Origin: Candidatus Gastranaerophilales bacterium
GTDB lineage: Bacteria; Cyanobacteriota; Vampirovibrionia; Gastranaerophilales; Gastranaerophilaceae
NCBI GenBank assembly: GCA_944323935.1
Contig: CALUUJ010000004.1
Location: 15,062 to 79,061 of the forward strand
Length of the DNA: 64,000 nucleotides
Reading direction: 5' to 3'
Shown here one piece after another: positions 4,951 through 50,087 of this stretch (its first letter is position 1; the number at the start of each line of letters is the position of its first letter). Below the pieces are notes generated by a model. That model did no database searches, was not told where the DNA came from, and worked only from the letters and a program-made list of their open reading frames with translations. A program made the position numbers and the translations under genes.

Positions 4951-6309
4951 TACTCTTTCAAGCATTACAATTGTTTCAACGTGATATGTATTGGGAAACA
5001 TATCTACTGGTTGTATATAAATTGTTTTAAAGCCGTTTTCATTAAGTATTTTCATATCTCTTGCTAAAGTTGAAACATTACAGCTGACGTAAATAATATA
5101 TTTTTCTGTAATTCTTATCAAGTTATTTATTGAATTTAAACTGCAACCCTTTCGAGGCGGGTCTGTAATTGAAATATCAAATTTAATACCTTTTTTTATT
5201 AGTTTATCAAACTCAACTTCAGCATCTCCATTAATAATTTCAATATTTTTAATGTTATTTAATTTTACATTTGCTCTTGCATCTTCTGAGGCAGATTTAA
5301 CTTCTTCTATACAAACTACATTTGATGCAATTGAAGATAACCAAATACCGAAACTGGAAACACCTGAATATGCATCTAATATCGTTGGGTTAGTAATTTT
5401 TGAAAGTATTAATTCTTTTACCTTATTAAATATAAGTTCCGCACATAATGGATTTACTTGAAAGAAACTGTTTGCACTAATTTTATAATTAACTTCTGAC
5501 AGTTTCTCTATATAATAATCGGTTCCTATAATATTTTTAGTATTATTACTCATTATCACATTTGTTTTCTGTTCATTTAAATTAGCACATACTCCACTTA
5601 CTACAGGAAACTTCTCTATTATAGATTTAGACAATGCAGTTAATTTTTTATCAATATTATTAGAATTTATAACAAATATTATTAGAATTTGATTTAAATC
5701 AGATGAAATTCTATATACAATATGTCTTAATAGTCCTTTATGACTTTTTTCAGAGTATGCAGTTATTCCTAATTTTTGCGCTTCTGTTTTTATATATTCA
5801 TTGATTTCGTTTATGATTTGAGGCTGCATTGGACAATATTTTATGTTTATAAGCTCATGTGTATTCTTTTTATAATATCCGCTTAAAATTCTGCTTGAAA
5901 CTTTTGTTTGTGATACTGGCAATTGGATTTTACATCTATATTCTTTTATTTTGGGAGACGGTATTACATTTTGAACTTGAACATTATTTCCGGCTATTTT
6001 TTTTAAAGTTTCATCAATGATAATTCTTTTTTGATTGAGTTGCTCTTCATAAGAAATATGCAGCCAATCACAACTCCCGCATATATTATGAAAAGCGCAC
6101 TCGGGCTTAACTCTGTATGGCGAAGATTCTATTATCTTAACAATTTCTGCTGTTAAATAATTTTTGTTTATATGTGTGATTTTTATTTGCAATTTATCTT
6201 TAGGACAAGCACCTGATACAAATACGGGGATATTATTTAGTCTAGCAAGAGCTAAACCTTGATTTAGCATTTTTTCAATTTCTACAATATATTCTTCATC
6301 TGTAATCAT
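4930..6309 (-). CDS. 23S rRNA (uracil-C5)-methyltransferase, RumA/RlmD family
   Basis: Has an N-terminal TRAM-like segment, the Fe-S Cys cluster (CAFHNICGSCDWLH ... C), FFQVN, a SAM-binding region, DPPRKG and a catalytic Cys region (YVSCN). Confidence 0.85.
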   Translation of the reverse strand: MITDEEYIVEIEKMLNQGLALARLNNIPVFVSGACPKDKLQIKITHINKNYLTAEIVKIIESSPYRVKPECAFHNICGSCDWLHISYEEQLNQKRIIIDETLKKIAGNNVQVQNVIPSPKIKEYRCKIQLPVSQTKVSSRILSGYYKKNTHELINIKYCPMQPQIINEINEYIKTEAQKLGITAYSEKSHKGLLRHIVYRISSDLNQILIIFVINSNNIDKKLTALSKSIIEKFPVVSGVCANLNEQKTNVIMSNNTKNIIGTDYYIEKLSEVNYKISANSFFQVNPLCAELIFNKVKELILSKITNPTILDAYSGVSSFGIWLSSIASNVVCIEEVKSASEDARANVKLNNIKNIEIINGDAEVEFDKLIKKGIKFDISITDPPRKGCSLNSINNLIRITEKYIIYVSCNVSTLARDMKILNENGFKTIYIQPVDMFPNTYHVETIVMLERVQKEAFL

Positions 6310-8324
6310 ATTTCTTTGTATACTCTTTCAATAACTTCTTCCCAGTTATTTGTTTCCTTTTGTCTGAATATTTTTACACTATTATACCAAATTGTTTTAT
6401 CTTCATCATAAAACCAACGCCATTCGGCAGTTTTAGGCAAAAGCAAGAATGTTTTTATTCCTAAAGCTCCTGCTAAATGTGCAACAGAGGAATCAATTGT
6501 TATCATTAAATCCATATTTTTTAATAATGCTGCCGTATCAGAAAAGTCTTTAATATAGTTTTTTAATTTATGTATTTTTTCTGTCTCAATTTGACAATCT
6601 TCCATTTGAAAAGAATAGAAAGAACAATTTTCTTTTGTTAAAAGCTTTTCTATATCTTTGAAATTAACAGATCTATTTTTAAATATTTTCTTATTTCCCT
6701 GCCAGCACAAGCCAATTTTTTTATTTTTATTTTTAAATATATTTATTTTTTTATACTCACTTATCAGTTTTTGATTTGCGTTTAAATATGCTTCTTTATT
6801 TGATATTTGTGTAAAATCGAGATTTAAGGCATATTGTGTATCCATCAATGAAATCACAATGTCATAATTTGGTATTTGTTCTCCTTTTTTAATTATGTCT
6901 ATGTTAGGCATCGACTCTTTTAGCAGAGATATTAATTTCTTATCTGTCTGCAGCGTTAAATTTCTAACTTTTTGTTTTAAAATTGGAAGAAATCTTGAAT
7001 ACATAATCGTATCACCTAATCCGCAGTCAGAATAAACTAAAATGTCTTTGTCAAATAAATTAGCTTCTTTGACCCATATTTTGTCGTGGAATATTTCATT
7101 AAATTTGCTTTCTTTGCTTCTTAAAGTATATAATTTCATACCTTTCTCAAATTGTTTCTCAGACAAGTAAATCATTCCAAGGGTTATTTTACTTTGTATG
7201 GAACAATTTGGTTCTTCATTAATTTTTTCTAAAATTTCTTTTGATTTTATTACATTATTTAAATATTTGAGTGCAACGGCTTTTCCGTGCAAATAATTTA
7301 AATTTTTATTATTTAGCAGTATTGCTTTGTTGTAATTTTCAAGTGCTTTATCATATTCGCACAAATCCATATAATTTACGGCTAATTGTGAATATGCCTC
7401 AGCGGAATTTTTATTTAAATTAATTATTTTATTTAATACATCAATACTTTCGCTATTTTTATAAAGTAATCTGTAAGTTTGAGCAAGGCTTAAAAGTAAG
7501 TTCTCATCATTTTGCTTTATATTGTAGCCTTTTAGTAAATACTCCAAAGCTTTTGTATTGTCTTTATCTTTGTAAAGTGATGCAATATTTATATATGATT
7601 CTATATGTCTTTCATTTAATTCAATTGACTTAATATATGCAGCTTCTGCTTCTTGATATTTACCTGTTCTTGATAAAAGTACACCAAGGTTATAAAAGTA
7701 AATATATTTTTTATTATTAAGTAAAATAGCTCTTTTTAAACAAATAATTGCAGAATTATAATCTTTTATATCTTCATAATACCCTGATAGTAAAGCAAAA
7801 ATATCTTCATCATTATTTTTAATTTCTAAGCATTTGTTTGCATATAAAATCGCCTCTTGGATTTTATTTTGATCTTTATAGGCAAGTGACAAATTATATA
7901 ATGCAGAATAGTTTTGTGCGTTGAGTTCTATCGCTTTTTTATAATTTAATATAACGTTTTCATAATCATTGATTTTTTTGTATGCCAATGCTATAGAGTA
8001 GTATATATCATCATTCTCTCCATATAATAAAGCTTGTTCATACATTTTTATTGCTTTCTCAGGTTCTGAGTTAAAATAATAAGCTTTTGCTAAGTTAGAA
8101 GCAATATATGATGATTTTTTTAGTATAAATGCTCTGGATAGGTAATTTATTGCCTCTGGTGGATTTTGCTTTGATAAATACAGCAAACCTATAAGGTTTA
8201 AAATATTTACATCATCCTGTTTTATCTGTAATAGCTCTTTATATATTCTTTCGGCTTCATCAAATTTATCTTGCTGATGATATTTATATGCCTCATCAGT
8301 CTTTTCTTGATAGTTGTATTTCAT
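6306..8324 (-). CDS. TPR-repeat protein fused to a GT9 (heptosyltransferase-like, GT-B) domain
   Basis: The N-terminal ~400 aa are TPR repeats. The C-terminal part has GT9-type motifs (GLGDTIMYSRFLP, IGLCWQGN, DTAALLKNMDLMITIDSSVAHLAGALGIKTFLLLP, EWRW). It has a 4-nt overlap with the downstream methyltransferase gene. Confidence 0.75.
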   Translation of the reverse strand: MKYNYQEKTDEAYKYHQQDKFDEAERIYKELLQIKQDDVNILNLIGLLYLSKQNPPEAINYLSRAFILKKSSYIASNLAKAYYFNSEPEKAIKMYEQALLYGENDDIYYSIALAYKKINDYENVILNYKKAIELNAQNYSALYNLSLAYKDQNKIQEAILYANKCLEIKNNDEDIFALLSGYYEDIKDYNSAIICLKRAILLNNKKYIYFYNLGVLLSRTGKYQEAEAAYIKSIELNERHIESYINIASLYKDKDNTKALEYLLKGYNIKQNDENLLLSLAQTYRLLYKNSESIDVLNKIINLNKNSAEAYSQLAVNYMDLCEYDKALENYNKAILLNNKNLNYLHGKAVALKYLNNVIKSKEILEKINEEPNCSIQSKITLGMIYLSEKQFEKGMKLYTLRSKESKFNEIFHDKIWVKEANLFDKDILVYSDCGLGDTIMYSRFLPILKQKVRNLTLQTDKKLISLLKESMPNIDIIKKGEQIPNYDIVISLMDTQYALNLDFTQISNKEAYLNANQKLISEYKKINIFKNKNKKIGLCWQGNKKIFKNRSVNFKDIEKLLTKENCSFYSFQMEDCQIETEKIHKLKNYIKDFSDTAALLKNMDLMITIDSSVAHLAGALGIKTFLLLPKTAEWRWFYDEDKTIWYNSVKIFRQKETNNWEEVIERVYKEI

Positions 8325-10449
8325 CTTTAACTCTTTTTATTACTTCATTCCATTGATTTGGATTTTTTTGCTTAAATATTTTAATACTATCATACCATGG
8401 AGTTTTTTCTTCATCAGTAAACCATCTCCATTCGCTATCGTATGGAAGAAGTAAAAATGTTTTTATTCCCATAGCCCCAGCTAAATGTGCTATTGAGGTA
8501 TCAATTGTTATTAAAATGTCAATATTTTTTAGTAATGCTGCAGTGTCGTTATAATCTTTAATATATTCAGATAAATCAATTAAAGGTAAGGTATTTTTTA
8601 ATTTTTCAGACTCATCATCAATTTTGGATATTTGAAATGAAAATATTTGTATATCTGAAATATCAAATAATGGTAGTAACTCTTTTAATTTTACGCTACG
8701 ATTAAAAAATACTGTCGGATTTCCTTGCCAAAAAAGACCAATCTTTTTCTTATTTGTATTAAATACTTTTAATTTTGCTTTTTCTTTAACTGATTTTGGT
8801 GAAACTGTTAGATACCCTTTTGATGACGGAATATTATTTAAATCTGTGCCAGAACAACATATTGCATGCATTTCTGACATTGAATAATCATATAAATTTT
8901 CATCAATATTTTCCCCTTTTATATAAATTTTAAGTTTTGGAAAATTATATTTTACTAATCTTTTCAGGTTTTTTGGTATATATAGTAATACAGTATTGGA
9001 TTTTTCTTTTATGATATTAATATATCTGCAAAACATTAGGAAATCACCAATTCCGTGGGAGCAGTAGATCAGAATATTTTTATTTTCAGTTTTATCGTTA
9101 ATATTTATACTTTTCTTTGAAAATATCTGAAGAATATTTAAATTGTTGTCACTATCCTTACCAAATGATAAGAACTCTTCTTCGGATATACTAAATTTTT
9201 CCAAGATATTAAGTTTATTAAAAAATTTTCTTGCTTTATGCTCTATATAATTAATATCATGAATACGATTATAAAATTTAAAATATTCGTCAATAATACT
9301 TTTTAGCTCTTTTTGTTTTAATTTTATGACAGTATATGTATCATTAAAACAATTTATAGATTTTAAAATTTCCTCAGAAATATCAAGGTCACCATTAGAA
9401 CAATATGCATTTGCAAGACTTTCTTTAACAGATTTATTATCAGGAGAAATTTTTAATGCTTCTTTATAAGAATCTATTGCTCTAGTATACTCCATTAACT
9501 CTAGATAACAGTCACCTGCCATTATATAATATAGATATTCGTTAGAATTTCTATTAATTAACTCAAGAGCAATATTAAGCGCATTTTTATAATCAAACAT
9601 TTCATAATAAATCAAATATATATAAAATGGAATTGATAAATCATTAGGGAAAATTTTTTGTATATCATAATATATTTCTATTGCATTTTTCATATCGATA
9701 GATTTGTATGTTAATGCAATATTTAGCATTGCATTCTTGTTATTTGGATTTATATGTATGACCTTATCAAAAGATTCAACTGCTTTCTTATAATCCCCGC
9801 TTTTTTTATATAAAATACCAAGTTGATATAAAATTGATTCATCTTGATTATTCGCAGCAACTTTTTCCAAGAATATTATTGCATTACTATAATCTTTTAA
9901 TTCTTCATATAAATATGCAATATGTAAAAGTATATCTTTATCGTTATGATTAGTTTCAAAAGCCTTTAATGCATATTTCAATGAATCTTGTATATTATTT
10001 AAGTATTTATAACATAATGATATATTGTAATATAATTGAGAATTATCAGAAATTATTTTTGTCAATTCTTTGAAATAATAAATTGCTGTTTCATAATCTT
10101 TTTCGCCCATATATGAAAGAGCAAGAATATTTTTTGTGTTTTGGTCTTTTAAACCTGAGTTTTTTAATATATCAATAGCAGATTTATGCTTTTTTTTATA
10201 CATATATATCTGTGCAATATTTATTTTTATTTCTTCTAATTTTGTTTTATTATATATTTTTTTAAATATTTCCAATGCTAAATCATAATTTTTAAGAGAA
10301 ACATTTAATTGTGCATACAAATTCTGAACATTTAAATCATCAGGATTTATAGATAAAAGTTTATTATAGACATCTAACGCTTCATCTAATTTACCTGAAA
10401 CGTGCATATTGTAAGCAATATCAACTAGTTTTGAATAAGATTTATCCAT
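8296..10449 (-). CDS. TPR-repeat protein fused to a GT9-like domain (tandem paralog of 6306..8324)
   Basis: Has the same architecture and near-identical C-terminal motifs (GIGDFLMFCRYIN, IGLFWQGN, DTAALLKNIDILITIDTSIAHLAGAMGIKTFLLLP, EWRW). It overlaps the paralog by 29 nt. Confidence 0.75.
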   Translation of the reverse strand: MDKSYSKLVDIAYNMHVSGKLDEALDVYNKLLSINPDDLNVQNLYAQLNVSLKNYDLALEIFKKIYNKTKLEEIKINIAQIYMYKKKHKSAIDILKNSGLKDQNTKNILALSYMGEKDYETAIYYFKELTKIISDNSQLYYNISLCYKYLNNIQDSLKYALKAFETNHNDKDILLHIAYLYEELKDYSNAIIFLEKVAANNQDESILYQLGILYKKSGDYKKAVESFDKVIHINPNNKNAMLNIALTYKSIDMKNAIEIYYDIQKIFPNDLSIPFYIYLIYYEMFDYKNALNIALELINRNSNEYLYYIMAGDCYLELMEYTRAIDSYKEALKISPDNKSVKESLANAYCSNGDLDISEEILKSINCFNDTYTVIKLKQKELKSIIDEYFKFYNRIHDINYIEHKARKFFNKLNILEKFSISEEEFLSFGKDSDNNLNILQIFSKKSININDKTENKNILIYCSHGIGDFLMFCRYINIIKEKSNTVLLYIPKNLKRLVKYNFPKLKIYIKGENIDENLYDYSMSEMHAICCSGTDLNNIPSSKGYLTVSPKSVKEKAKLKVFNTNKKKIGLFWQGNPTVFFNRSVKLKELLPLFDISDIQIFSFQISKIDDESEKLKNTLPLIDLSEYIKDYNDTAALLKNIDILITIDTSIAHLAGAMGIKTFLLLPYDSEWRWFTDEEKTPWYDSIKIFKQKNPNQWNEVIKRVKDEIQLSRKD

Positions 10450-10487: not shown

Positions 10488-13166
10488 TTACATGATTTCA
10501 GGCAAAGTTGACTTGTCAATACCTAATTTTTCAAGATAATCAAAAATAGGACCTTGCTTACCTTTTCGAATCCAACTAAAGTCTTCACTCAATGAATCTT
10601 GAACCATCTTTTCGTATTGTTCGGGATTTTCAAAGTATATTTTTAAGCCTTCCTTCATTGCTTGATAAAAACCCTCAGCAGTTAATGGTTTCTTATTATC
10701 AGTTAGAATACCGTTTGTTTTTCCGTCTCTATTAACTGTATCAACAATACCGCCAACTGCACTTCCAATTACCGGTGTACCAAGTGCAAATGATTCACCT
10801 TGAGTTAAGCCGCAAGGTTCAAAAATACTCGGAAGCAAGAAGAAGTCAGAACTTGCAGTTAGTGCACTCATTGGCGCAAAACCATGTGCAAAAACAATTC
10901 TATTAGAATCTTCTTGAGATAGTTTTTTATTCTTTAAATCTTCAATATATTTCCTTTGTGTACCGTTCTCACCGTCTTGTCCTGCAATATAGAAAATTGG
11001 TTTATTCTTTCCTGGAAAATCTTTTTCCCAGTTTTCCATAAGCAATTTTATTGCTTCTGACATTATCCCTATTCCCTTTTGTGAAACTAAACGGCCGACA
11101 GATGTTATAATCGGAGTTTGTGCTAACTCATTATCTGATAATATTGGTAATTCGGTTTTTCTTTCTCCTTCAACAAATTCTAATTTGCTTGAAATTTTTC
11201 TAACTCTTTCAACATTTTCACCAGAATTAGACTTATCATTTTTGTGTGAAAATGGAAGCATATAATCATTATAAAAATTTATTTTGTTAACTAATCTTGC
11301 TGACATTATTTGAGAAATATCTGTTTCTCTGTTATATGTTTTTGGCAAGATACCGGTTTGTTGTTGAATTTGCGCTTTTTTCGCTTCTATGGACAAATTA
11401 TCAAAATCATTACCATTAATAATTCCAACTAAGGATCCTGATTTTGCTTTTTGGTTTAGAGCCCATCTTAATTCACCGGCTAATTCAGGATGATCGTCTG
11501 AGATTATCTCTTTTGCGTAGTTTTGCGAAACCGGATGAAAATAATTACTTAAGCAAATACCCATATTCAAAAGATTTGTATGATTTGCATACGGGTCTTG
11601 TATATTCATTATTAATACATTATCTAAATTCTTTAATCCGTGATCATTTGGATTTATATTTGAAGCATTTGTTTTTGAATTTAGAACTATATCATATGTA
11701 TAAGAGTCAAATAGAGTATTAAGAATGTTTGTTGTTGAATCTTTTCTTTGAGAATTATTATTATTATTTTGTGTTGATCCTTGATACATTGTATTGTGAC
11801 CAATAGTTATGATATTCATTTCAGATAATGTTTTTGAAGCTTCGTCTGATAGCTCTCCGTAAGCATTTTCCATAGGCGCCTTATATCTTGCTAAAGCAGC
11901 AATTGGAGAACTTTGCCAATCATTTAAAATTAGACCGTCCGGTGCTTTTATTGAGTTAAATGTCTCTTTATCAAATATTCTTAAATCTTTTATGCTATTT
12001 ATATCAGCTTTCGCTTTTGCCAGTTCATAAACAGCTTTCGAGAAAAATGCAAACTTCTCAGGTTCTTCAGTCTTCTCGCTTGTTTGATATATAGTGCCAT
12101 TAAAATAGTTATCATTTTTTATGAAAATTAATTGTTTTTCTCTACTATCACTATCTTTTGTTGTACTAACAAATATCTCAACATCTTCAGTTTTGGATTT
12201 TCCGCCTTGATAAGCGTCAACTTTAAAAGATGCAGCTTTTTTAAGTTTGAATTCTTTTCCTTTGTATGAATAAATGTAATCATCTCCATCTTGTCTAAAA
12301 GCAGCAATGCCCTTCTGTTGGTACATTGGAATAAATGTTGGTATATTTATACCAAGCTTTGTAACATTATTCTGGATTTCAACAGGAACAGAACCAAGAC
12401 CACCTTCTTTGATTGGGGCAAATTCTGAAGTAACAGACCATAATGTAGGATTGTCCTTTGTAATTGGTTTCGTACTTGGGTTTTCATATAGATATGTTGA
12501 AGCAGCATTTTGAATTTGTTTAATTGCTTGTGAATATTTTTGTTCATTTTTATTCAATGAATTTGAATTTTTTAATAATTGTATTCCATTTATGTCTACT
12601 ACATATTTTTTACTTAAACTATTTCCATTTAATCCTATTGCTTGTTCTGCCGAAGAAAGCGCTCTGGATGATTTTGAATCTATATCACTAACTTTTGCGG
12701 ATACTTTGTTTGGTAATTCTTGTTTTAAATCATCAGAAAGGTCACCGGCTTTATATGCTGTGCCAAGTCCTGCCAGTGCCAGTAATACTGACCAAATTTT
12801 AGCATTTTCTTTCTTTGAACTATTTACAATACTTTGTACATTTTGAGTAGATAATACAGCTCTTTGCTCAGCAACTGCTTGCATCTTTGCAATATCATCA
12901 CTTAAATTTCTAATTTGACCTTTTAACTCACTTATTATCGTATTATTTAATGCTGAAACTTTTTTTGTAGTTAGTTTTGTAGCAATAAGGGCTGTTACAG
13001 GAATAGCCGCAATTGATATTGCTATAGGTGCAACAGTCTTTGCTGTTTCAATAACTTTTTTCTTTTTTTCAGCTTGTATACTTGTTTTATTTGAAGTTGT
13101 TGAATCTGCAACATTTGAAATGTATACCGGATTTGTTCTAAATTCAGAAAACACACCTATGTTCAT
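10488..13166 (-). CDS. GT5 glycogen/starch-synthase-like glycosyltransferase with a long membrane-anchored N-terminal extension
   Basis: Has a GT5 start (WSVTSEFAPIKEGGLGSVP, compare the GGLGDV motif) and a C-terminal EPCGLTQGESFALGTPVIGSAVGGIVDTV. About 255 aa before the catalytic domain carry two hydrophobic helices and a coiled-coil-like stretch. The start is moved to ATG 13166 (MNIGVF) because AGGAG lies 6 nt upstream. Confidence 0.75.
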   Translation of the reverse strand: MNIGVFSEFRTNPVYISNVADSTTSNKTSIQAEKKKKVIETAKTVAPIAISIAAIPVTALIATKLTTKKVSALNNTIISELKGQIRNLSDDIAKMQAVAEQRAVLSTQNVQSIVNSSKKENAKIWSVLLALAGLGTAYKAGDLSDDLKQELPNKVSAKVSDIDSKSSRALSSAEQAIGLNGNSLSKKYVVDINGIQLLKNSNSLNKNEQKYSQAIKQIQNAASTYLYENPSTKPITKDNPTLWSVTSEFAPIKEGGLGSVPVEIQNNVTKLGINIPTFIPMYQQKGIAAFRQDGDDYIYSYKGKEFKLKKAASFKVDAYQGGKSKTEDVEIFVSTTKDSDSREKQLIFIKNDNYFNGTIYQTSEKTEEPEKFAFFSKAVYELAKAKADINSIKDLRIFDKETFNSIKAPDGLILNDWQSSPIAALARYKAPMENAYGELSDEASKTLSEMNIITIGHNTMYQGSTQNNNNNSQRKDSTTNILNTLFDSYTYDIVLNSKTNASNINPNDHGLKNLDNVLIMNIQDPYANHTNLLNMGICLSNYFHPVSQNYAKEIISDDHPELAGELRWALNQKAKSGSLVGIINGNDFDNLSIEAKKAQIQQQTGILPKTYNRETDISQIMSARLVNKINFYNDYMLPFSHKNDKSNSGENVERVRKISSKLEFVEGERKTELPILSDNELAQTPIITSVGRLVSQKGIGIMSEAIKLLMENWEKDFPGKNKPIFYIAGQDGENGTQRKYIEDLKNKKLSQEDSNRIVFAHGFAPMSALTASSDFFLLPSIFEPCGLTQGESFALGTPVIGSAVGGIVDTVNRDGKTNGILTDNKKPLTAEGFYQAMKEGLKIYFENPEQYEKMVQDSLSEDFSWIRKGKQGPIFDYLEKLGIDKSTLPEIM

Positions 13167-13253
13167 ACAAAACTCCTTTTCCACACAAATTTTAGAAGTT
13201 GCATAAATCAATGAAAATGCTTTTTTTAGCCTTTTTATGAAAAAATTGTTACA

Positions 13254-14342
13254 TTAAAAATAAAATTTTGAAATTACTAATTTGAAAAAATAATCACTTA
13301 TTGTCTTTTGTGGTTTATTTTTATCAAAAATAAAATTTATATCTATGGGAGAACAACTTTCTATAATATTATACCTTTTTATTAAATCTTCAATATGTGC
13401 CCATATTTGCCAATCAATATCAAATAAATTTGAAATTTTTATGAAATACTTTGTCAATTCAATTATTTCAAGCATTGTTTTTTTATCATCAAAATTTTGT
13501 CTTAACCAATGTAAATCTATATTTAAGATTACTCCTGATACATTTGCTTTCTTTGATTTTAAGATAAATTTTAAGATTTCCTTTTTGCTGTTGTTAACAT
13601 TAGGAATAATTATAAACTTTGTTCTGACTGAGTTATTGAAAATTTTAGAATTAATACCGCTTGAGTATTCTTTTATATTCTGCCATACAGTATTCCATAA
13701 ATTCTTTCTTTTTATAAATTCAAATTTCTTTGGTGTTCCTGAATCAATTGACGATATGACCGAAACTACACCTTTCTCTATGCCTTTTTTAATACTTTCT
13801 GAGAAAATCGTTGCATTAGTATTAATATTGATATCTTTAACTCCATTATCTATAAGCAATGATAGAAGCTCGTTAAAATTTCTATCTAATGTAGCTTCTC
13901 CGCCTGCAATATCTATTTTTGTATTTTTAGTTATTATCTTTTTCTCCAGCATGTCCTTTATTACTGGAATTAAGTTATATTCTTTAGTATTATTTATTAC
14001 ATTTTTATCTTTATGATTTGAACAATATATGCAAAAAAGATTACATTTTACCCAAACATTAAGTAAAATATAACGAAATTCTCTTTCTCTTTTGTCCCAA
14101 TTTGCATTCTTAATCCATAAGCAATCACTGCAAGCAGGCAAAGATGAACCTCTTTTCATAAGCTCTATATGCTCATCTCTTTTTTTAAAAAATTCGTCCC
14201 AATCAATTAATTCGCCAGTGTAGTTTTCATATAGTACAGGCTGACCTCCATTGGGCGTTAACATACAACAATAACCAATTTTGTTTAAATGATTAAAAAA
14301 TAATTCACCTTCTATTGAATGGCAGCTTCTATACGTATTCAT
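13254..14342 (-). CDS. Radical SAM enzyme with N-terminal Cys-rich module (paralog P1 of the 45463..48434 trio)
   Basis: Has CNLFCIYC (CxxxCxxC), IAGGEATL and IIPNVNN motifs. The N-terminal module has SC..IEG, YCC and ACSDC..W, which align with the other three paralogs. Confidence 0.8.
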   Translation of the reverse strand: MNTYRSCHSIEGELFFNHLNKIGYCCMLTPNGGQPVLYENYTGELIDWDEFFKKRDEHIELMKRGSSLPACSDCLWIKNANWDKREREFRYILLNVWVKCNLFCIYCSNHKDKNVINNTKEYNLIPVIKDMLEKKIITKNTKIDIAGGEATLDRNFNELLSLLIDNGVKDININTNATIFSESIKKGIEKGVVSVISSIDSGTPKKFEFIKRKNLWNTVWQNIKEYSSGINSKIFNNSVRTKFIIIPNVNNSKKEILKFILKSKKANVSGVILNIDLHWLRQNFDDKKTMLEIIELTKYFIKISNLFDIDWQIWAHIEDLIKRYNIIESCSPIDINFIFDKNKPQKTISDYFFKLVISKFYF

Positions 14343-27988: not shown

Positions 27989-28016
27989 ATTTAAAATATT
28001 TATATAATATACAAAA

Positions 28017-28106
28017 CGGAGAAGGTGGGATTCGAACCCACGGTGCAGATTACTCCACACAACACCTTAGCAGGGTGCCGCCTTAAACCTACTCGGCCAC
28101 TTCTCC
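28017..28106 (-). tRNA. tRNA-Ser (anticodon GCU), type II with long variable arm, CCA not encoded
   Basis: The reverse complement folds as acceptor GGAGAAG/CTTCTCC+G, D-arm GCCGAG..., anticodon stem-loop GCACC-CTGCTAA-GGTGT, a long variable arm, and T-arm GTGGG-TTCGAAT-CCCAC. Confidence 0.93.
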
Positions 28107-28120
28107 AAGACGCTATAACA

Positions 28121-42070: not shown

Positions 42071-42327
42071 GCCGTGCCACTATCTATCGGCAAATACAAA
42101 TACAGTTTTCGTTATATATACCTACTTCGAAAATAAATACACCCATAGTTTACACCTTAGTGCTGCTACGTTCCCGTCCTGACACGGTTCGATGGACTAT
42201 GCCATAAATACCTGCGCTATCAACAATATATATAAAGTCTGCCGTATTCATACAGGCCTCACAATAGGCTCTGCACCCCGCTATGCGTTCGGGTCAAGGG
42301 ATCCGCAATGTCCCCGTGGAGCACGGC
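42071..42327 (-). ncRNA. ffs: Signal recognition particle RNA, long (Alu-domain-containing) form
   Basis: The minus strand contains the conserved helix-8 core GUGUCAGGACGGGAACGUAGCAGCACUAAGG (compare GUCAGGUCCGGAAGGAAGCAGC, with an apical GGAA tetraloop). The termini GCCGUGC...GCACGGC pair to close the molecule. GC content is locally elevated. A promoter lies directly upstream and a terminator directly downstream. Confidence 0.85.
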
Positions 42328-44429: not shown

Positions 44430-44456
44430 TAACTCAAATCTTTATTTAATAAAAAA

Positions 44457-44482
44457 AGACCGATATAAACTCGGTCTTTTTT
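44457..44482. terminator. Bidirectional intrinsic terminator between convergent genes
   Basis: Has stem agaccga (44457-44463) with tcggtct (44471-44477) and a 7-nt loop, between an A-run and a T-run. Confidence 0.65.
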
Positions 44483-45462: not shown

Positions 45463-46458
45463 TTAAAATCCTGCTATATTTTCTTCTCTTGACTTTTCTA
45501 CTTCACATTTTACTTGAAAAATTTGTCCATATAACTCACAATTCATATCCATTTCTTTTGCTTTGGCTTGTGTATAATTCATTAAATTATATATTGGAAT
45601 TAAGTCATTATCTACATTTTTCATAATCCAGTTAAAGTCGAGGTTTAATACTACACTCTTTATATTTATATTTTTGCATTTTTCGAGCCAAAGTTTTATT
45701 TCTTCTTCTGTATCGTTTAAGCCAGGTACTATTATATATTTCGCCTTGACATAATCTGCACCTATAGGCTGGTTCTTTGCATATTCTTTTAGGTTTTTCC
45801 ACACTTTATCATATGATTTGACCTGCTTTACTTTCTCATGTACCTCTTTTGTTCCAGCATCTATTGATACTAAAACACGAACCACACCTTTTCTCAATCC
45901 TTTGATTATAGAATTACTTTTTTTAATCGCATTAGTATGTATTATTATTTTGGTAAAATCGTATTTTATAAATTCATTTAATAGAGCTTCAAATTCTCTG
46001 TATATTGTAGGTTCTCCGCCTGCAAAATCTATAGTGCCATCTTTTTTTAAGATGTTGTTTTTTATCATATCTTTTATTAAAGGAAGAACTTTATAAACTT
46101 TAGTTTTTTCCAGCACTTCTTTATCTCTAGGTGCTTGGCAATATATACAATTAGAATTACAAGGAACCCATGGAGTAAGTAGCAAGTAATCAATATAATC
46201 GTCATCATCCCAATTCTTAAATGATGTATTTACACAATTTTTACAAAGTTCAGGACTAGTCTTCTCTCTATATTTTTTTCTCAATTCTCTTTTTATACCA
46301 AAAAATTCTTTCCAGTCTATTTTTTGTCCTTGATAATTCTCATATATAATTGGTCTTCCGCCATATCTCGGATTAAAGTTATTACAAGAACGTATACGAT
46401 TACAATGGTCAAGAACCATTCCGTGTTCTATATAACTACAACTTTCAAAGCCTTCCAA
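45463..46458 (-). CDS. Radical SAM enzyme with N-terminal Cys-rich module (paralog P2)
   Basis: Has CNSNCIYC (CxxxCxxC), FAGGEPTI, IHTNA, SIDAGTKEVHEKVKQVKSYDKVWKNLKEYA and IVPGLNDTEEE. The N-terminal module has SC.YIEHG and CKNC...W. Confidence 0.8.
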   Translation of the reverse strand: MEGFESCSYIEHGMVLDHCNRIRSCNNFNPRYGGRPIIYENYQGQKIDWKEFFGIKRELRKKYREKTSPELCKNCVNTSFKNWDDDDYIDYLLLTPWVPCNSNCIYCQAPRDKEVLEKTKVYKVLPLIKDMIKNNILKKDGTIDFAGGEPTIYREFEALLNEFIKYDFTKIIIHTNAIKKSNSIIKGLRKGVVRVLVSIDAGTKEVHEKVKQVKSYDKVWKNLKEYAKNQPIGADYVKAKYIIVPGLNDTEEEIKLWLEKCKNINIKSVVLNLDFNWIMKNVDNDLIPIYNLMNYTQAKAKEMDMNCELYGQIFQVKCEVEKSREENIAGF

Positions 46459-46469
46459 TTTTTATTCCT

Positions 46470-47456
46470 TTACATCAAATTATATTCTGTCACTAAATAT
46501 CTAAAATTATTATATTCTACCAAATTTAAATCAAGCTCTTTTGCTCTTAGTATTATATAATTGCAGAGATCTATAAGATATTTTGGTTTTTCTTCGTTTT
46601 TAGCTCTTAGTTCTTTGCAGTAATCATTTTCAATATCAATAACAATTGAATTTATTCCTGATTTTATAGTTAAATCCATCCATTTATCAATTTCATTTTT
46701 ATTTGTATTTACATTAGGAATTAATATAAATTTTGATTCGACAAAAACTTTATTATCAATATCTTTTTGAGCTTTTGCATATTTTTTTGCATTTTCCCAA
46801 AATTTATCAAACTTATCAACTCTTTTTACTGCTTTGTATGTTTCTTTTGTACCAGAATCCGCAGACAAACACACAGACAACTTCTTTTCTTTAATACCTC
46901 TTTCAATTGCTTTCGAATATTTTATTCCAGAAGAATGAACCGTTATACGCTCGGCTCCATTTTTTAATAAAAAAGTGACTAATTCTTCAAATTCATTCAA
47001 AATAGTCGGTTCACCACCTGCAAAAGTTATTTCACCATCTGGTTTAAATAATTTTTTCTTAAATAAATCTTTAATAATAGGCAATACTTTGTAGTGTGGT
47101 CTGGAATTAAATGCTTTTTTGTCCCATTTTGTATAACAATATATACAGTCACTATTACAATGAGTCCAATGATTAAAATGGATATAGTTTATATATGGTA
47201 TTGATTCTTCCCACCCTCTATAAACTAAATTAAAACAGCCTTCACATCTTGGATCAATAATTCCGTTTTTATTGTCACTAATAAATTTTTCTTTTAGCTT
47301 TAATATGTCGTCCCAAGTAACACCTTTACCATTATAACTTTCCTTTATATAAAGCCTGCCACCACCTTTATGACAACACAAACAGCACATCTCTATATGA
47401 TCATTTTCAAAACTTAAACCGTGTTGGAGCCAATGACAACTTGTATATTCTTGCAT
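46470..47456 (-). CDS. Radical SAM enzyme with N-terminal Cys-rich module (paralog P3)
   Basis: Has CNSDCIYC, FAGGEPTI, VHSSGIKYSKAIERG and LIPNVNTNKNE. The N-terminal module has SCHWLQHG, MCCLCC and CEGC...W. Confidence 0.8.
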   Translation of the reverse strand: MQEYTSCHWLQHGLSFENDHIEMCCLCCHKGGGRLYIKESYNGKGVTWDDILKLKEKFISDNKNGIIDPRCEGCFNLVYRGWEESIPYINYIHFNHWTHCNSDCIYCYTKWDKKAFNSRPHYKVLPIIKDLFKKKLFKPDGEITFAGGEPTILNEFEELVTFLLKNGAERITVHSSGIKYSKAIERGIKEKKLSVCLSADSGTKETYKAVKRVDKFDKFWENAKKYAKAQKDIDNKVFVESKFILIPNVNTNKNEIDKWMDLTIKSGINSIVIDIENDYCKELRAKNEEKPKYLIDLCNYIILRAKELDLNLVEYNNFRYLVTEYNLM

Positions 47457-48434
47457 TTAATTTGCTCCTTTTTTTTCACTTTTGAATTTCATCATATGCT
47501 CTGCTCTCTCATATAATTCGTACTTTAAACCTAAACTTTCCGCTTTTTCTTTTGCAAAATTAAAAAATTCAATGATATTATCAGGAACATTTTCTCTTCG
47601 TGCATAAAACCATTTTGATTCAATCTCGTGCAAAACACAATTAATCCCGTTATCTTTTGCTTTTTTTAACCAAAGTTCAATTTCTTCTTTACTGTCATTG
47701 ACTCCTGGAATTAAGATATATTTAACCTTAACAGCAAAAGGATCTTTCTGGTGAGAAGCATACCTTTTTAAGTTTTTCCATACTTTATCATAAGACTTAA
47801 CTTGTTTTACTTCTTCATGCATTTGTTTTGAACCTGCATCAACAGAAACTATAAGATCAACACGACCATTTTTTAAGCCTTTTTCTATTGCTCTCGAATA
47901 TTTTATACAAGAAGAATGTATACGTGTAAGCGGGAATCCAGCTTCCATAAATATATGCAATAATTTATCAAATTCTTTTAATAAAGTTACTTCTCCACCC
48001 CCAAAACTAACGTGTCCATTTGGTCTTAAAATATCTCTTTTTATCATATCTTTTAGTATCGGAAGAAAATTATAATTTTTAAAACGATTATAGGCATCTT
48101 TATCTGCCATAGTATGGCAATATGAGCATCTGGAATTACACTTTGTCCAATAATCAAGATTTATCATACTAATCTTTGTATGATCATCCGGCCAATCCCT
48201 TTCTTCTAAGAATATGCACCCATCACATTTAGGATAAACTTTTCCGCTCTTATGAATATCTTTCATTTGTTTTTTAAAAGAAAAAAATTCATCCCAATCT
48301 ACAGGCTCGCCTTTGTAATTATCTTTTACAATTGTATTTCCGCCACCTTTTGCGCTATATAAACAACATACTTTATATGCATCTCTATCAAAATTTATTC
48401 CGGATTCTATCCAATAACAACTCTTATAACGCAA
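47457..48434 (-). CDS. Radical SAM enzyme with N-terminal Cys-rich module (paralog P4)
   Basis: Has CNSRCSYC at residues 99-106, FGGGEVTL, IHSSCIKYSRAIEKG and LIPGVNDSKEE. N-terminal Cys are at 6, 23, 24, 70 and 73. It uses a TTG start with an AAGAGGGA SD and abuts P3 with no gap. Confidence 0.8.
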   Translation of the reverse strand: MRYKSCYWIESGINFDRDAYKVCCLYSAKGGGNTIVKDNYKGEPVDWDEFFSFKKQMKDIHKSGKVYPKCDGCIFLEERDWPDDHTKISMINLDYWTKCNSRCSYCHTMADKDAYNRFKNYNFLPILKDMIKRDILRPNGHVSFGGGEVTLLKEFDKLLHIFMEAGFPLTRIHSSCIKYSRAIEKGLKNGRVDLIVSVDAGSKQMHEEVKQVKSYDKVWKNLKRYASHQKDPFAVKVKYILIPGVNDSKEEIELWLKKAKDNGINCVLHEIESKWFYARRENVPDNIIEFFNFAKEKAESLGLKYELYERAEHMMKFKSEKKGAN

Positions 48435-48484
48435 AATAAATCCCTCTTATAATTATAATTTTATCATAAGCGATTTAAAATGTG

Positions 48485-48509
48485 AAAGGCATTCTTATTG
48501 AATGCCTTT
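48485..48509 (-). terminator. Hairpin spanning the stop codon of the 449-aa gene (possible weak terminator/attenuator before the radical SAM trio)
   Basis: Has a 10-bp stem, aaaggcattc (48485-48494) with gaatgccttt (48500-48509), and a 5-nt loop containing the TAA. The downstream U-tract on the minus strand is interrupted (CACAUUUU). Confidence 0.4.
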
Positions 48510-49844
48510 TTTCTTATATTTTTTAATGTCTTCTGCAACGTGGAATTTTGTTGTTCCTGTTTTAATTTCTCTGTATTTGTAAACAGCTTTTGGGATAAGG
48601 TAGCCTAAAATTACGCAAGATATGCCAATATTTGCCATTACAGATGCTACTTTTAAACCTTTTGCTTTGTTTAAAAAGTTTTTAACTGGAATATTTGCTG
48701 TTTTATAAGATTCTTCCATTAATGTCATATTCTGAGCAAGACTATTCAAAGCTTTCATATCAATGAATTTTGATGTATCAACAACAGCATTCCCTGCCTT
48801 ATCTTTTACGGTAGAAACTATTTTGGATTTTTTTGCAGCCTGAACTAGAGAATTATCTGGATTTTCTATTATAAAGTTCAGTTTTTCTGTAAGAGATTTT
48901 GTTAGTGGTGCTTTTGCTACATCAGCTGAAATTTTACCATTTTTTAATGCTTCCGTAAATTGTCCATCCATTAATACATCTATTGGCAAATCTATTGGTG
49001 TTTTTAATACTTTTGATGAAAACTTATTTATTCCATCTTCAATCATTCCACCAAATTTATATAAAAAGAATAAAAAGCTCCCTTCTTTTATTGCATGTTC
49101 GAAGAATTCTGTTTTATTTCTTGAACAAGCAAGTCTTTCGGTTGTAATACCTGCATCAATAATTTTCATATTATGAACAGGATTAAACATTATTGCATCA
49201 GAAACATTTTTTACAACACCTTTGAATGATGGTGCTTTTTCATTTTGTTTGCTATTTGAGGTAAAATCCTTAAATGAAGAAAATACACCTGAATCATCTT
49301 TAGGAGAACTGATAAAGGTATCTTTCATTTCTTTCTTCATGTCATTTATTACAGTATTTTTAGTATTCTTTTGTTTAGTTTTTGTAAGCAAAAAGAAAGT
49401 CGCTAAAGTTAAGGCTGTAGCAGCAATTATTTTCCCTTTATAGAGATTTTTTGCTTTTGTACCACCATCTTTCAAACAATCTGAAAGTGCTTGCTTTACA
49501 GTTTGAGTTTTAGAGTTTGACATTATCCCTTTAGCATTTTCTAACGCCCAAGTTGAATACTCTTTATCTGCAATGATTCTCGGATCTACTGCGGGATTTA
49601 TTTTTGCAGCTTTATATGCAGTCCATTCAATTAATTTTTTATAGAAAGGAATCCCGCCAATCCAAATAGCTTGAGTTCCAAACTCATCAATGGCTCTGTC
49701 GATCCCTTCAACTTTACCGCCTTCTTTAAATGATTTGTATGTAAGACTTGTGCTGTCCACACCGTCTTTTACCATAATAGGTATTAATGAATCTTTATTT
49801 CCTAGTGTTGATATAACTTTTGTAGTAATAGCTTGTATGGTCAT
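48495..49844 (-). CDS. Hypothetical membrane-associated protein (449 aa), no recognisable family
   Basis: Is a long ORF with an AGGA SD. It has at least two strongly hydrophobic helices (IIAATALTLATFFLL, VASVMANIGISCVILGYLIP). I recognise no catalytic motifs. Confidence 0.6.
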   Translation of the reverse strand: MTIQAITTKVISTLGNKDSLIPIMVKDGVDSTSLTYKSFKEGGKVEGIDRAIDEFGTQAIWIGGIPFYKKLIEWTAYKAAKINPAVDPRIIADKEYSTWALENAKGIMSNSKTQTVKQALSDCLKDGGTKAKNLYKGKIIAATALTLATFFLLTKTKQKNTKNTVINDMKKEMKDTFISSPKDDSGVFSSFKDFTSNSKQNEKAPSFKGVVKNVSDAIMFNPVHNMKIIDAGITTERLACSRNKTEFFEHAIKEGSFLFFLYKFGGMIEDGINKFSSKVLKTPIDLPIDVLMDGQFTEALKNGKISADVAKAPLTKSLTEKLNFIIENPDNSLVQAAKKSKIVSTVKDKAGNAVVDTSKFIDMKALNSLAQNMTLMEESYKTANIPVKNFLNKAKGLKVASVMANIGISCVILGYLIPKAVYKYREIKTGTTKFHVAEDIKKYKKKGIQ

Positions 49845-49868: not shown

Positions 49869-49952
49869 TTACAAGCCCCAAATTAAATTTCTCAATTTGA
49901 CAAACGGGGTATTTGCCTTTTTGTATTTTTCTGCTCGTCGTAAATTTTTCAA
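49869..49952 (-). CDS. Candidate small ORF (27 aa, MKNLRRAEKYKKANTPFVKLRNLIWGL), unverified
   Basis: Has a TTG start preceded by AAAGGAG with 7-nt spacing. It lies between the upstream terminator and the 449-aa gene. It is too short for compositional support. Confidence 0.25.
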   Translation of the reverse strand: MKNLRRAEKYKKANTPFVKLRNLIWGL

Positions 49953-49973: not shown

Positions 49974-50005
49974 AAAAAGCCTTCTTTTGAACAAGAAGGC
50001 TTTTT
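49974..50005. terminator. Intrinsic terminator hairpin (bidirectional geometry)
   Basis: Has stem gccttctt (49979-49986) with aagaaggc (49993-50000) and a 6-nt loop, flanked by AAAAA and TTTTT. Confidence 0.7.
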
Positions 50006-50033
50006 AAATATTGTCATAACAAAATCGTTACGA

Positions 50034-50087
50034 TTATCTCGTAAAGCCTCCTAATCTATAGCTGCGTCGATTTTGTATGAATTTCAT
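50034..50087 (-). CDS. Candidate micro-ORF / leader peptide (17 aa, MKFIQNRRSYRLGGFTR), unverified
   Basis: Has an ATG with an AGAGG SD at 7-nt spacing. An extended -10 box TGtTATAAT (50113-50105) lies upstream, and the terminator at 49974-50005 follows about 30 nt after the stop. Confidence 0.3.
   Translation of the reverse strand: MKFIQNRRSYRLGGFTR

Follow-up and report, generated by a model that had tools for sequence, protein, structure and literature searches.

A window of 64,000 nucleotides from a Candidatus Gastranaerophilales bacterium (contig CALUUJ010000004.1 of assembly GCA_944323935.1; all positions below count from the first letter of this stretch) carries three tandem paralogous genes, rS1, rS2 and rS3, whose products belong to a large and unnamed radical S-adenosylmethionine (SAM) family. 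The architecture of this family, in which an N-terminal module of about 95 amino acids with four conserved cysteines precedes a radical SAM core, has no counterpart among characterized enzymes, curated family models or solved structures. We read the three genes as a self-contained operon for paralogous enzymes with two metal sites that would tailor sugars or glycans, with the dehydrogenase encoded behind them as a passenger; we put the chance that this overall reading is right at about even. What is new here is the coupling of the family to family 2 glycosyltransferases (GT2), an N-terminal domain not described before and the scale of the expansion in Melainabacteria, whereas a radical SAM core joined to an extra cysteine-rich domain is known as a kind of architecture.

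Three tandem radical SAM genes on one probable transcript

A preliminary description of this DNA had reported three tandem paralogous radical SAM open reading frames (ORFs) of 325–331 amino acids that run tightly into a dehydrogenase gene. Coordinates and alignment bear this out, and both coordinates and sequence place the gaps at 0 nt (rS1/rS2), 11 nt (rS2/rS3) and 1 nt (rS3/dehydrogenase). The genes and signals of the putative operon are as follows (OG, orthogroup).

48434–47457, minus strand: rS1, radical SAM paralogue 1 (325 aa, OG1); TTG start; N-module (residues 1–95) at 48150–48434
47456–46470, minus strand: rS2, radical SAM paralogue 2 (328 aa, OG2); ATG start; N-module at 47169–47456
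46458–45463, minus strand: rS3, radical SAM paralogue 3 (331 aa, OG3); TTG start; N-module at 46168–46458
45461–44481, minus strand: D-isomer-specific 2-hydroxyacid dehydrogenase (326 aa, D-lactate dehydrogenase/VanH-like); PF02826 and PF00389
44451–44480, minus strand: intrinsic-terminator-like hairpin AAAAGACCGA-GTTTATA-TCGGTCTTTT, then a T run; read from the sequence
48452–48486, minus strand: two overlapping sigma-70-like promoter matches; consensus match, 10/12 each

The start of rS2 is the base directly after the rS1 stop codon, and a Shine–Dalgarno-like AAGAGGGA stands ahead of the TTG with which rS1 begins. The two top promoter-like matches of the region, as judged by the sigma-70 consensus only, lie in the gap of 60 nt that precedes rS1. 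Directly 3′ of the dehydrogenase stop codon lies an A-tract/hairpin/T-tract (44451–44480), which an automatic terminator scan missed because its T run pairs with the upstream A run. The tight spacing, the upstream promoter-like site and the terminator after the dehydrogenase fit co-transcription, which the preliminary description had already thought likely; the three radical SAM genes and the dehydrogenase gene are probably transcribed together.

The three proteins are 37–39% identical in pairs and can be aligned from end to end. Columns identical in all of them are C6, C23, C70, C73, W81, C99, C103, C106, G146-G147-E148, H173, I177-K178, P243 and N246. The CxxxCxxC motif takes the forms CNSRCSYC, CNSDCIYC and CNSNCIYC, and a CC pair at positions 23–24 is present in copies 1 and 2 only. 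Pfam recognizes PF04055 alone, over residues ~95–255; with 55.1, 60.1 and 73.5 bits, all three proteins clear the cut-off of 29.5. With the CxxxCxxC and GGE motifs, PF04055 above threshold and a partial TIM-barrel as the predicted fold, the trio belongs to the radical SAM superfamily.

Outside the core, little is recognizable. For rS1–rS3, Pfam returns no match to residues 1–95 and no SPASM (PF13186), B12 or RRE domain, and NCBIfam gives matches to the core only, every one of them below its cut-off. The N-terminal cysteine-rich module is thus as uncatalogued in these two databases as had been claimed, and the reported absence of C-terminal SPASM/twitch, B12 and RRE domains holds; no conserved cysteine lies C-terminal to the core, either in the trio alignment or in 114 relatives. 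The top NCBIfam match of rS1 and rS3 is the model of the pyruvate formate-lyase activating enzyme (PFL-AE; TIGR02493), at 39–51 bits against a cut-off of 232. Scores for the equivalogs MoaA (at most 50 against 284 bits), viperin (at most 57 against 180) and Tes (at most 42 against 450) stay far below theirs, as does the score for TIGR04466, considered with the sugar-nucleotide enzymes DesII and BlsE (26 bits against 400). Against NF033640, the model of a ‘twitch domain-containing radical SAM protein’ subfamily whose twitch region is N-terminal, rS2 and rS3 score 27–31 bits and a fourth copy elsewhere in the window reaches 50, where the cut-off is 170; the model positions involved (97–303) correspond to the core. 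No glycyl-radical enzyme was found among the genes called within 8–10 kb in related loci. By domain content and score, the trio lies outside the enzymes with a C-terminal SPASM/twitch domain and the glycyl-radical activase (TIGR02493/TIGR02494), MoaA, viperin and Tes families.

A large family defined by its cysteine pattern

As a working definition of the family we used the pattern C-x14-22-C(C)-x35-60-CxxC-x15-40-CxxxCxxC together with a full-length match to the family profile. A search with this profile, which covered 1.84 billion cluster representatives, gave 4075 matches at E ≤ 1e-3 and 438 clusters (at 50% identity) at E ≤ 1e-30. Nearly all of the top 150 matches are 310–365 aa long and align from profile position 2–6 on, so the N-module is included.

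Across 114 diverse members, which are 24–56% identical to rS1, the invariant positions are C6, C23, C73, C99, Y105, C106, G147, K210 and Y225, and at least 90% of the members share C70, C103, G146, E148, S197, D199, N221, K238 and N246. When N-modules are taken in isolation (56 sequences), the four cysteines, spaced C-x16-C-x46-CxxC, are the sole invariant columns. The tryptophan that had been called invariant keeps this status within the trio, where W81 is identical, but is merely the majority residue across the wider family.

With the family hidden Markov model (HMM), rS1, rS2 and rS3 score 404, 385 and 372 bits, all three being part of the seed alignment; independent members score 134–250 bits over the same span of the profile. 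An NCBIfam cut-off is reached by none of the 114 members, in keeping with the preliminary description, which had seen a fit neither to the usual RiPP maturases nor to a familiar housekeeping radical SAM enzyme. Their weak best matches are to MoaA (108 of 114), viperin (92 of 114) and Tes (77 of 114), and NF033640 matches 37 of them (best E 1.8e-13) in the core only, at no more than 57 bits against the cut-off of 170. A tblastn search of plasmids and phages found no full-length homologue. Nor did we find the family in the literature on radical SAM proteins of Melainabacteria or Gastranaerophilales, on N-terminal twitch/SPASM domains or on glycosyltransferase–radical SAM fusions.

Predicted structure and the N-terminal module

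Structure prediction with AlphaFold2 from the family alignment gave a confident model of rS1 (pLDDT 97, pTM 0.93), and the N-module alone was modelled at pLDDT 94.9. On these models, the module is predicted to be a separately folding, compact domain of ~95 aa with four invariant cysteines. Foldseek comparison of the full rS1 model with the PDB gave matches to the core only, with query TM-scores of at most 0.53. The top match is PFL-AE 3c8f (E 1.5e-9, ~233 columns, query TM-score 0.49), followed by SkfB, DesII, SuiB, Tes, Mmp10, BlsE, NifB and viperin; the Foldseek probability is 1.00 for PFL-AE, NifB, viperin and QueE. Searching PDB sequences with the full family profile likewise retrieved cores only (Tes, BlsE and SkfB), the best being Tes at E 2e-6, and a profile of the N-module matched nothing meaningful there. 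The modelling that had been suggested as a check therefore yields a confident fold with a core like those of known radical SAM enzymes, but leaves the N-module without a PDB match; the module has no coverage in Pfam, NCBIfam or the PDB. A weak match to DUF7830, on which we found nothing published, occurs in 5 of the 56 modules (best E 0.0075).

We regard the module as a putative auxiliary Fe–S domain because its four cysteines are invariant: they would bind a second metal centre, most likely an auxiliary [4Fe–4S] cluster. Its elements follow the order cysteine, β-hairpin, cysteine, helix, CxxC, which we take to resemble the twitch-domain pattern of BtrN, an enzyme that oxidizes an aminocyclitol. 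The auxiliary ligands of BtrN are C169, C188, C232 and C235, with a spacing similar to that of the N-module cysteines. We treat a twitch-like nature of the module as tentative.

Among known systems, twitch/SPASM enzymes (BtrN, anSME and SkfB) and NF033640 likewise combine a radical SAM core with a separate cysteine-rich domain that is expected to hold an auxiliary Fe–S cluster; in the twitch/SPASM enzymes, however, the extra domain is C-terminal, whereas in rS1–rS3 it is N-terminal. PFL-AE (3c8f/3cb8) is the closest solved fold for the core (target TM-score 0.63–0.66) but is without an N-terminal Cys4 domain. DesII and BlsE rank near the top when the core is compared by structure and by sequence (8hzy, E 1.3e-7; 7vob), a likeness that is limited to the core, and they too have no equivalent of the N-terminal four-cysteine module. 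Both act on nucleotide-linked sugars, the substrate class that we propose for the trio.

Fusion and adjacency to glycosyltransferases

Family members outside Melainabacteria retain the full cysteine pattern. On four low-GC marine contigs, a single member of 430–439 aa overlaps or abuts an upstream GT2 gene. Around these members lie genes for NeuB, a CMP-sugar cytidylyltransferase, a DegT aminotransferase and a PseB/CapD-like dehydratase, for UDP-glucose dehydrogenase and for a GHMP kinase with a SIS isomerase. An AMP-ligase with its carrier protein, acetyltransferases, an ABC exporter and a radical SAM protein of the SPASM type are encoded there too.

One contig (L105) encodes a 794-aa fusion in which GT2 occupies residues 21–258 and the family domain residues 368–639. 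Used as a query, this fusion returned 202 clusters at E ≤ 1e-20; the figures that follow refer to the 120 of these 202 clusters that were listed. Nearly all are 750–810 aa long, and PF00535 and PF04055 occur together in 119 of the 120. Every one of the 120 matches the family HMM derived from Melainabacteria (134–198 bits), carries the cysteine pattern C-x14-22-C(C)-x35-60-CxxC-x15-40-CxxxCxxC and matches an HMM of the module alone right behind the GT2 domain (median 28.7 bits). Hosts include Paraglaciecola mesophila, Vibrio cidicii, Pseudoalteromonas luteoviolacea, a Pectobacteriaceae isolate, Undibacterium, Methylotenera and Candidatus Accumulibacter.

The proteobacterial fusions thus have the same four-cysteine module directly ahead of the same radical SAM core as rS1–rS3. 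Traits of their own are a GT2 domain that precedes module and core, frequently a C2185-like_N domain at the C terminus, their occurrence in single copy and their place in flagellin-glycan or O-antigen loci. Examples, none of them characterized, are P0367 of Paraglaciecola mesophila (786 aa, ‘putative glycosyltransferase EpsJ’), P0410 of Vibrio cidicii (770 aa) and P0418 of Pseudoalteromonas luteoviolacea. The Paraglaciecola fusion is part of a flagellin-glycosylation island that also encodes Maf, flagellin, DegT, GFO/IDH/MocA, ATP-grasp and a number of glycosyltransferases, and the Vibrio fusion lies between lipopolysaccharide-core genes and a NeuB-type nonulosonic-acid cluster.

At four loci (L177, L178, L103 and L105), the GT2–radical SAM genes stand beside genes for a DegT aminotransferase, a GFO/IDH/MocA oxidoreductase and an ATP-grasp ligase, which suggests that these three form a conserved module making an amide-decorated amino sugar.

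The fourth family member of the window also has a glycosyltransferase neighbour.

13254–14342, minus strand: fourth radical SAM family member (362 aa, OG28); family HMM 318 bits, same cysteine pattern
10488–13211: GT5/GT1 glycosyltransferase gene; starts 43 nt downstream of the fourth copy
6306–10449, minus strand: two tandem paralogous proteins (~700 aa) with long TPR arrays

The fourth copy is divergent from, and faces, genes for an MsbA-type ABC exporter and UDP-glucuronate decarboxylase. The TPR pair lies downstream of the GT5/GT1 gene, and one of the two proteins has a weak C-terminal GT9 (heptosyltransferase-like) signal.

Arrays and expansion in gut Melainabacteria

The closest database proteins to the trio carry the label Candidatus Gastranaerophilales or Avigastranaerophilus, both non-photosynthetic Melainabacteria of the gut, and the G+C content of the window (~29%) agrees with such an origin. 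The best 120 matches sort into orthologues of rS1 (76–98% identity), rS2 (73–88%) and rS3 (80–98%). Each copy has orthologues in many metagenomes at 72–98% identity, far beyond chance, and the clean sorting implies that each paralogue is separately conserved under purifying selection.

A scan with one genome per GTDB species returned 322 loci, and the best 80 of these 322 all come from Melainabacteria-type metagenome-assembled genomes (MAGs). In the 89 loci that we examined, the family HMM identified 289 genes. Arrays of three dominate (63), alongside 52 singletons, seven arrays of four, five of two and two of five; copies per MAG range from 4 to 16, which are lower bounds. In the MAG JAEZSO (L046, 1–15325), nine family genes, one of them a two-domain fusion, fall within ~15 kb. 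They are interleaved there with a gene for a membrane-TPR protein and with four genes that join an N-terminal SPASM domain (PF13186 on residues 8–69) to a radical SAM domain. CALUPV, which represents the same species as the window (97% identical), has four more family copies on another contig (L052); together with the fourth copy in the window, these bring the genome to at least 8 copies.

With orthogroups set at ≥50% identity, deeper lineages have an array of the form OG0-OG1-OG2, and OG3, the group of rS3, sits in a separate array (OG0, OG0, OG3, OG7). The arrays are modular and their composition is reshuffled, so that the trio is not a fixed three-step unit, which the preliminary description had offered as one of two possibilities. 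Fusions of two family domains arose repeatedly, and one is kept at 80% identity between independent sources; such recurrent fusion of paralogues suggests that neighbouring paralogues work together.

Clustering of the gene neighbourhoods around Melainabacteria arrays returned mostly housekeeping genes. Three proteins that are not related to one another, but whose fold is or is likely to be of the papain type, recur beside the arrays: a 461-aa Cys/His protein (L052, 11065–12450), a DUF1796 protein (L062, 8138–8887) and a CHAP protein (L038, 7161–8840). The 461-aa protein, for which neither Pfam nor the PDB gives a match, lies behind a single OG0 copy in 24 loci.

The dehydrogenase and the variable 3′ slot

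By sequence, the gene behind rS3 is clearly a D-isomer-specific 2-hydroxyacid dehydrogenase: its Pfam domains score well above cut-off, and NCBIfam models of VanH and D-lactate dehydrogenase give 213–305 bits, all below their cut-offs. It follows the orthologous array in 19 loci. At least nine loci share the upstream gene but lack the dehydrogenase, and a convergent BaxI-like gene comes next there. About eight deeper-branching loci have a MATE exporter in its slot. In the MAG JAFUEV (L032), the orthologous operon reads rS1-rS2-GT2, with the GT2 gene starting 12 nt after rS2 (GT2 HMM 116 bits; PDB match GalT1, 5e-32). In other genomes, homologous dehydrogenases lie far from any array.

Because the 3′ gene differs between loci, conservation extends to the radical SAM genes but not to the 3′ slot; the dehydrogenase is probably a lineage-specific passenger on the transcript. 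The comparison across relatives that had been proposed as a check thus gives a divided answer, in that tandem arrays recur and some keep the dehydrogenase, but its linkage is not constant and does not support the hydroxy- or keto-acid pathway at which it had been taken to hint. The dehydrogenase, enolase and BaxI were considered as functional partners and rejected on the ground that their linkage varies.

Upstream gene, small ORFs and other features of the window

Upstream of the promoter-like site, and elsewhere in the window, the following features were recorded.

48484–48510: hairpin overlapping the stop codon of the 449-aa gene
48495–49844, minus strand: protein of 449 aa, membrane segments predicted; unmatched in Pfam, NCBIfam and the PDB
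49869–49952, minus strand: 27-aa ORF MKNLRRAEKYKKANTPFVKLRNLIWGL; conserved in 24 loci
50034–50087, minus strand: 17-aa ORF MKFIQNRRSYRLGGFTR (consensus M..IQNRR....KGGFTI*); conserved in 24 syntenic loci
42072–42326, minus strand: large bacterial signal recognition particle (SRP) RNA gene; Rfam; ordinary housekeeping RNA
28016–28107, minus strand: tRNA-Ser(GCT) gene; Rfam; ordinary housekeeping RNA

The 449-aa gene is present in 29 loci and always lies upstream of the array in the close clade; in deeper Melainabacteria, a coiled-coil CHAP-domain protein takes its place. The 27-aa ORF adjoins the 449-aa gene on its upstream side. Its C-terminal motif ...PFV[KR]L[RM]NL[IV]WGL is kept while the DNA changes are synonymous, and conservation at the protein level of this sort indicates that the ORF is probably translated; its product may be a small membrane or secreted peptide.

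The 17-aa ORF stands directly after rplI, has a Shine–Dalgarno site and is followed by a strong GC hairpin (~49990–50020) and a T run. It contains tandem CGA-CGN arginine codons, which are expected to be uncommon at ~29% G+C, the composition of the window. It could encode the leader peptide of an attenuator, or carry a truncated prepilin-like G|FT motif. An Rfam scan of the window found the SRP RNA and one tRNA only, and none near the operon.

Proposed chemistry and alternative explanations

If the trio tailors sugars, a 5′-deoxyadenosyl radical would abstract a hydrogen from the substrate, and the auxiliary cluster would then donate an electron to the substrate radical or accept one from it, in the manner of twitch/SPASM enzymes. 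We propose as substrate a sugar that is nucleotide-linked, lipid-linked or a residue of a cell-surface glycan, and the enzyme would partner a GT2-type glycosyltransferase. Radical epimerization, oxidation and the formation of C–C or C–X bonds are candidate reactions on a sugar that has just been, or is about to be, transferred. The positions or substrates on which the three paralogues act may be related, and the proteins could form a hetero-oligomer; the D-2-hydroxyacid dehydrogenase would be a fermentative housekeeping gene that is on the transcript in this clade only. A bolder extension, which we offer tentatively and think rather more likely wrong than right, is that the family is an unrecognized class of carbohydrate-tailoring radical enzymes coupled to GT2, which in gut Melainabacteria became uncoupled and multiplied to 7–16 conserved paralogues, with heavy radical modification of envelope glycans.

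Several observations weigh against a role in sugar tailoring with two metal sites. The weightiest are that the trio in the window has no glycosyltransferase neighbour, its conserved surroundings being housekeeping genes (for ribosomal proteins, SecY and enolase), and that the GT2-linked members are distant relatives, only ~25–35% identical to rS1–rS3; function can drift within a radical SAM family. An exported small molecule would account just as well for the MATE exporter that follows the array in deeper clades. As for the second metal site, metal binding by the four cysteines is deduced from their conservation. Foldseek found no PDB match for the N-module alone (top E 3.5), and the Pfam SPASM model PF13186 matched 1 of 56 modules, at E 0.094. 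A profile alignment (hhalign) of the module with the four N-terminal SPASM sequences placed C6 and CC23 in register, at a probability of only 10%.

The alternatives have less support than the sugar reading. The most probable of them, although we consider it improbable, is that the substrate is another common metabolite, such as a nucleotide (as for MoaA and viperin) or a membrane lipid (as for Tes), with a product that is retained or exported by MATE. The weak best family matches of the 114 members are to these very enzymes, Tes is the best PDB sequence match, the arrays are self-contained operons without dedicated partner enzymes and a MATE exporter is linked to them in some clades. However, the matches to MoaA, viperin and Tes cover the generic core only and fall far below cut-offs, and it is glycosyltransferase and sugar-nucleotide genes that recur beside family members, whereas genes of lipid or nucleotide metabolism do not. 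A little less probable again is a trio of peptide or protein maturases, similar to those of ribosomally synthesized peptides with post-translational modifications (RiPPs), that act on the 27-aa ORF product ending ...PFVKLRNLIWGL or on the 449-aa protein, with MATE exporting the product. The small ORF persists in 24 loci of conserved synteny, where the DNA of its C-terminal motif shows synonymous changes, the gene order (small ORF, 449-aa gene, three radical SAM genes) would suit such a system, and papain-fold proteins (CHAP, DUF1796 and the Cys/His protein) flank other arrays. A MATE exporter behind the array in ~8 loci, fused in P0134, and the closest solved fold, a protein-modifying activase, point the same way. 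Yet Pfam finds neither RRE nor SPASM domains, and the small ORF lies 1.4 kb off, beyond another gene, a hairpin and a promoter-like site. Arrays of other types are without a comparable small ORF, and the pair of small ORF and 449-aa gene tracks the array only in wholly syntenic regions, which makes their co-occurrence weak evidence; GT2 domains and genes that are fused to, or lie beside, family members elsewhere speak for sugars instead.

We give least credence, and very little, to the small-molecule pathway first suggested for this locus, in which three radical steps are coupled to the 2-hydroxyacid dehydrogenase. The 1-nt gap between rS3 and the dehydrogenase, their shared terminator and the retention of the arrangement in 19 related loci agree with it. 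Against this, the dehydrogenase is missing from at least nine loci that have the same three orthologues and upstream gene, its slot is taken by a MATE exporter or GT2 in other loci, and homologous dehydrogenases lie far from arrays in other genomes. Its top-scoring models, of the D-lactate dehydrogenase/VanH type, fit ordinary fermentation.

Implications

To our knowledge, there has been hardly any work on radical SAM chemistry that targets the surface polysaccharides of bacteria, and the sugar-acting radical SAM enzymes that we know of come almost entirely from antibiotic pathways. The chemistry of this widespread and uncharacterized family is directly testable, because at least 120 clusters of fusions exist and several of these are in culturable marine and plant-associated Proteobacteria. 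The N-terminal four-cysteine domain would be a new type of auxiliary-cluster domain. Melainabacteria are essentially uncultured, and about ten conserved paralogues make this one of the larger lineage-specific enzyme expansions in a Melainabacteria genome of ~2 Mb; the expansion should mark something distinctive about their cell envelope.

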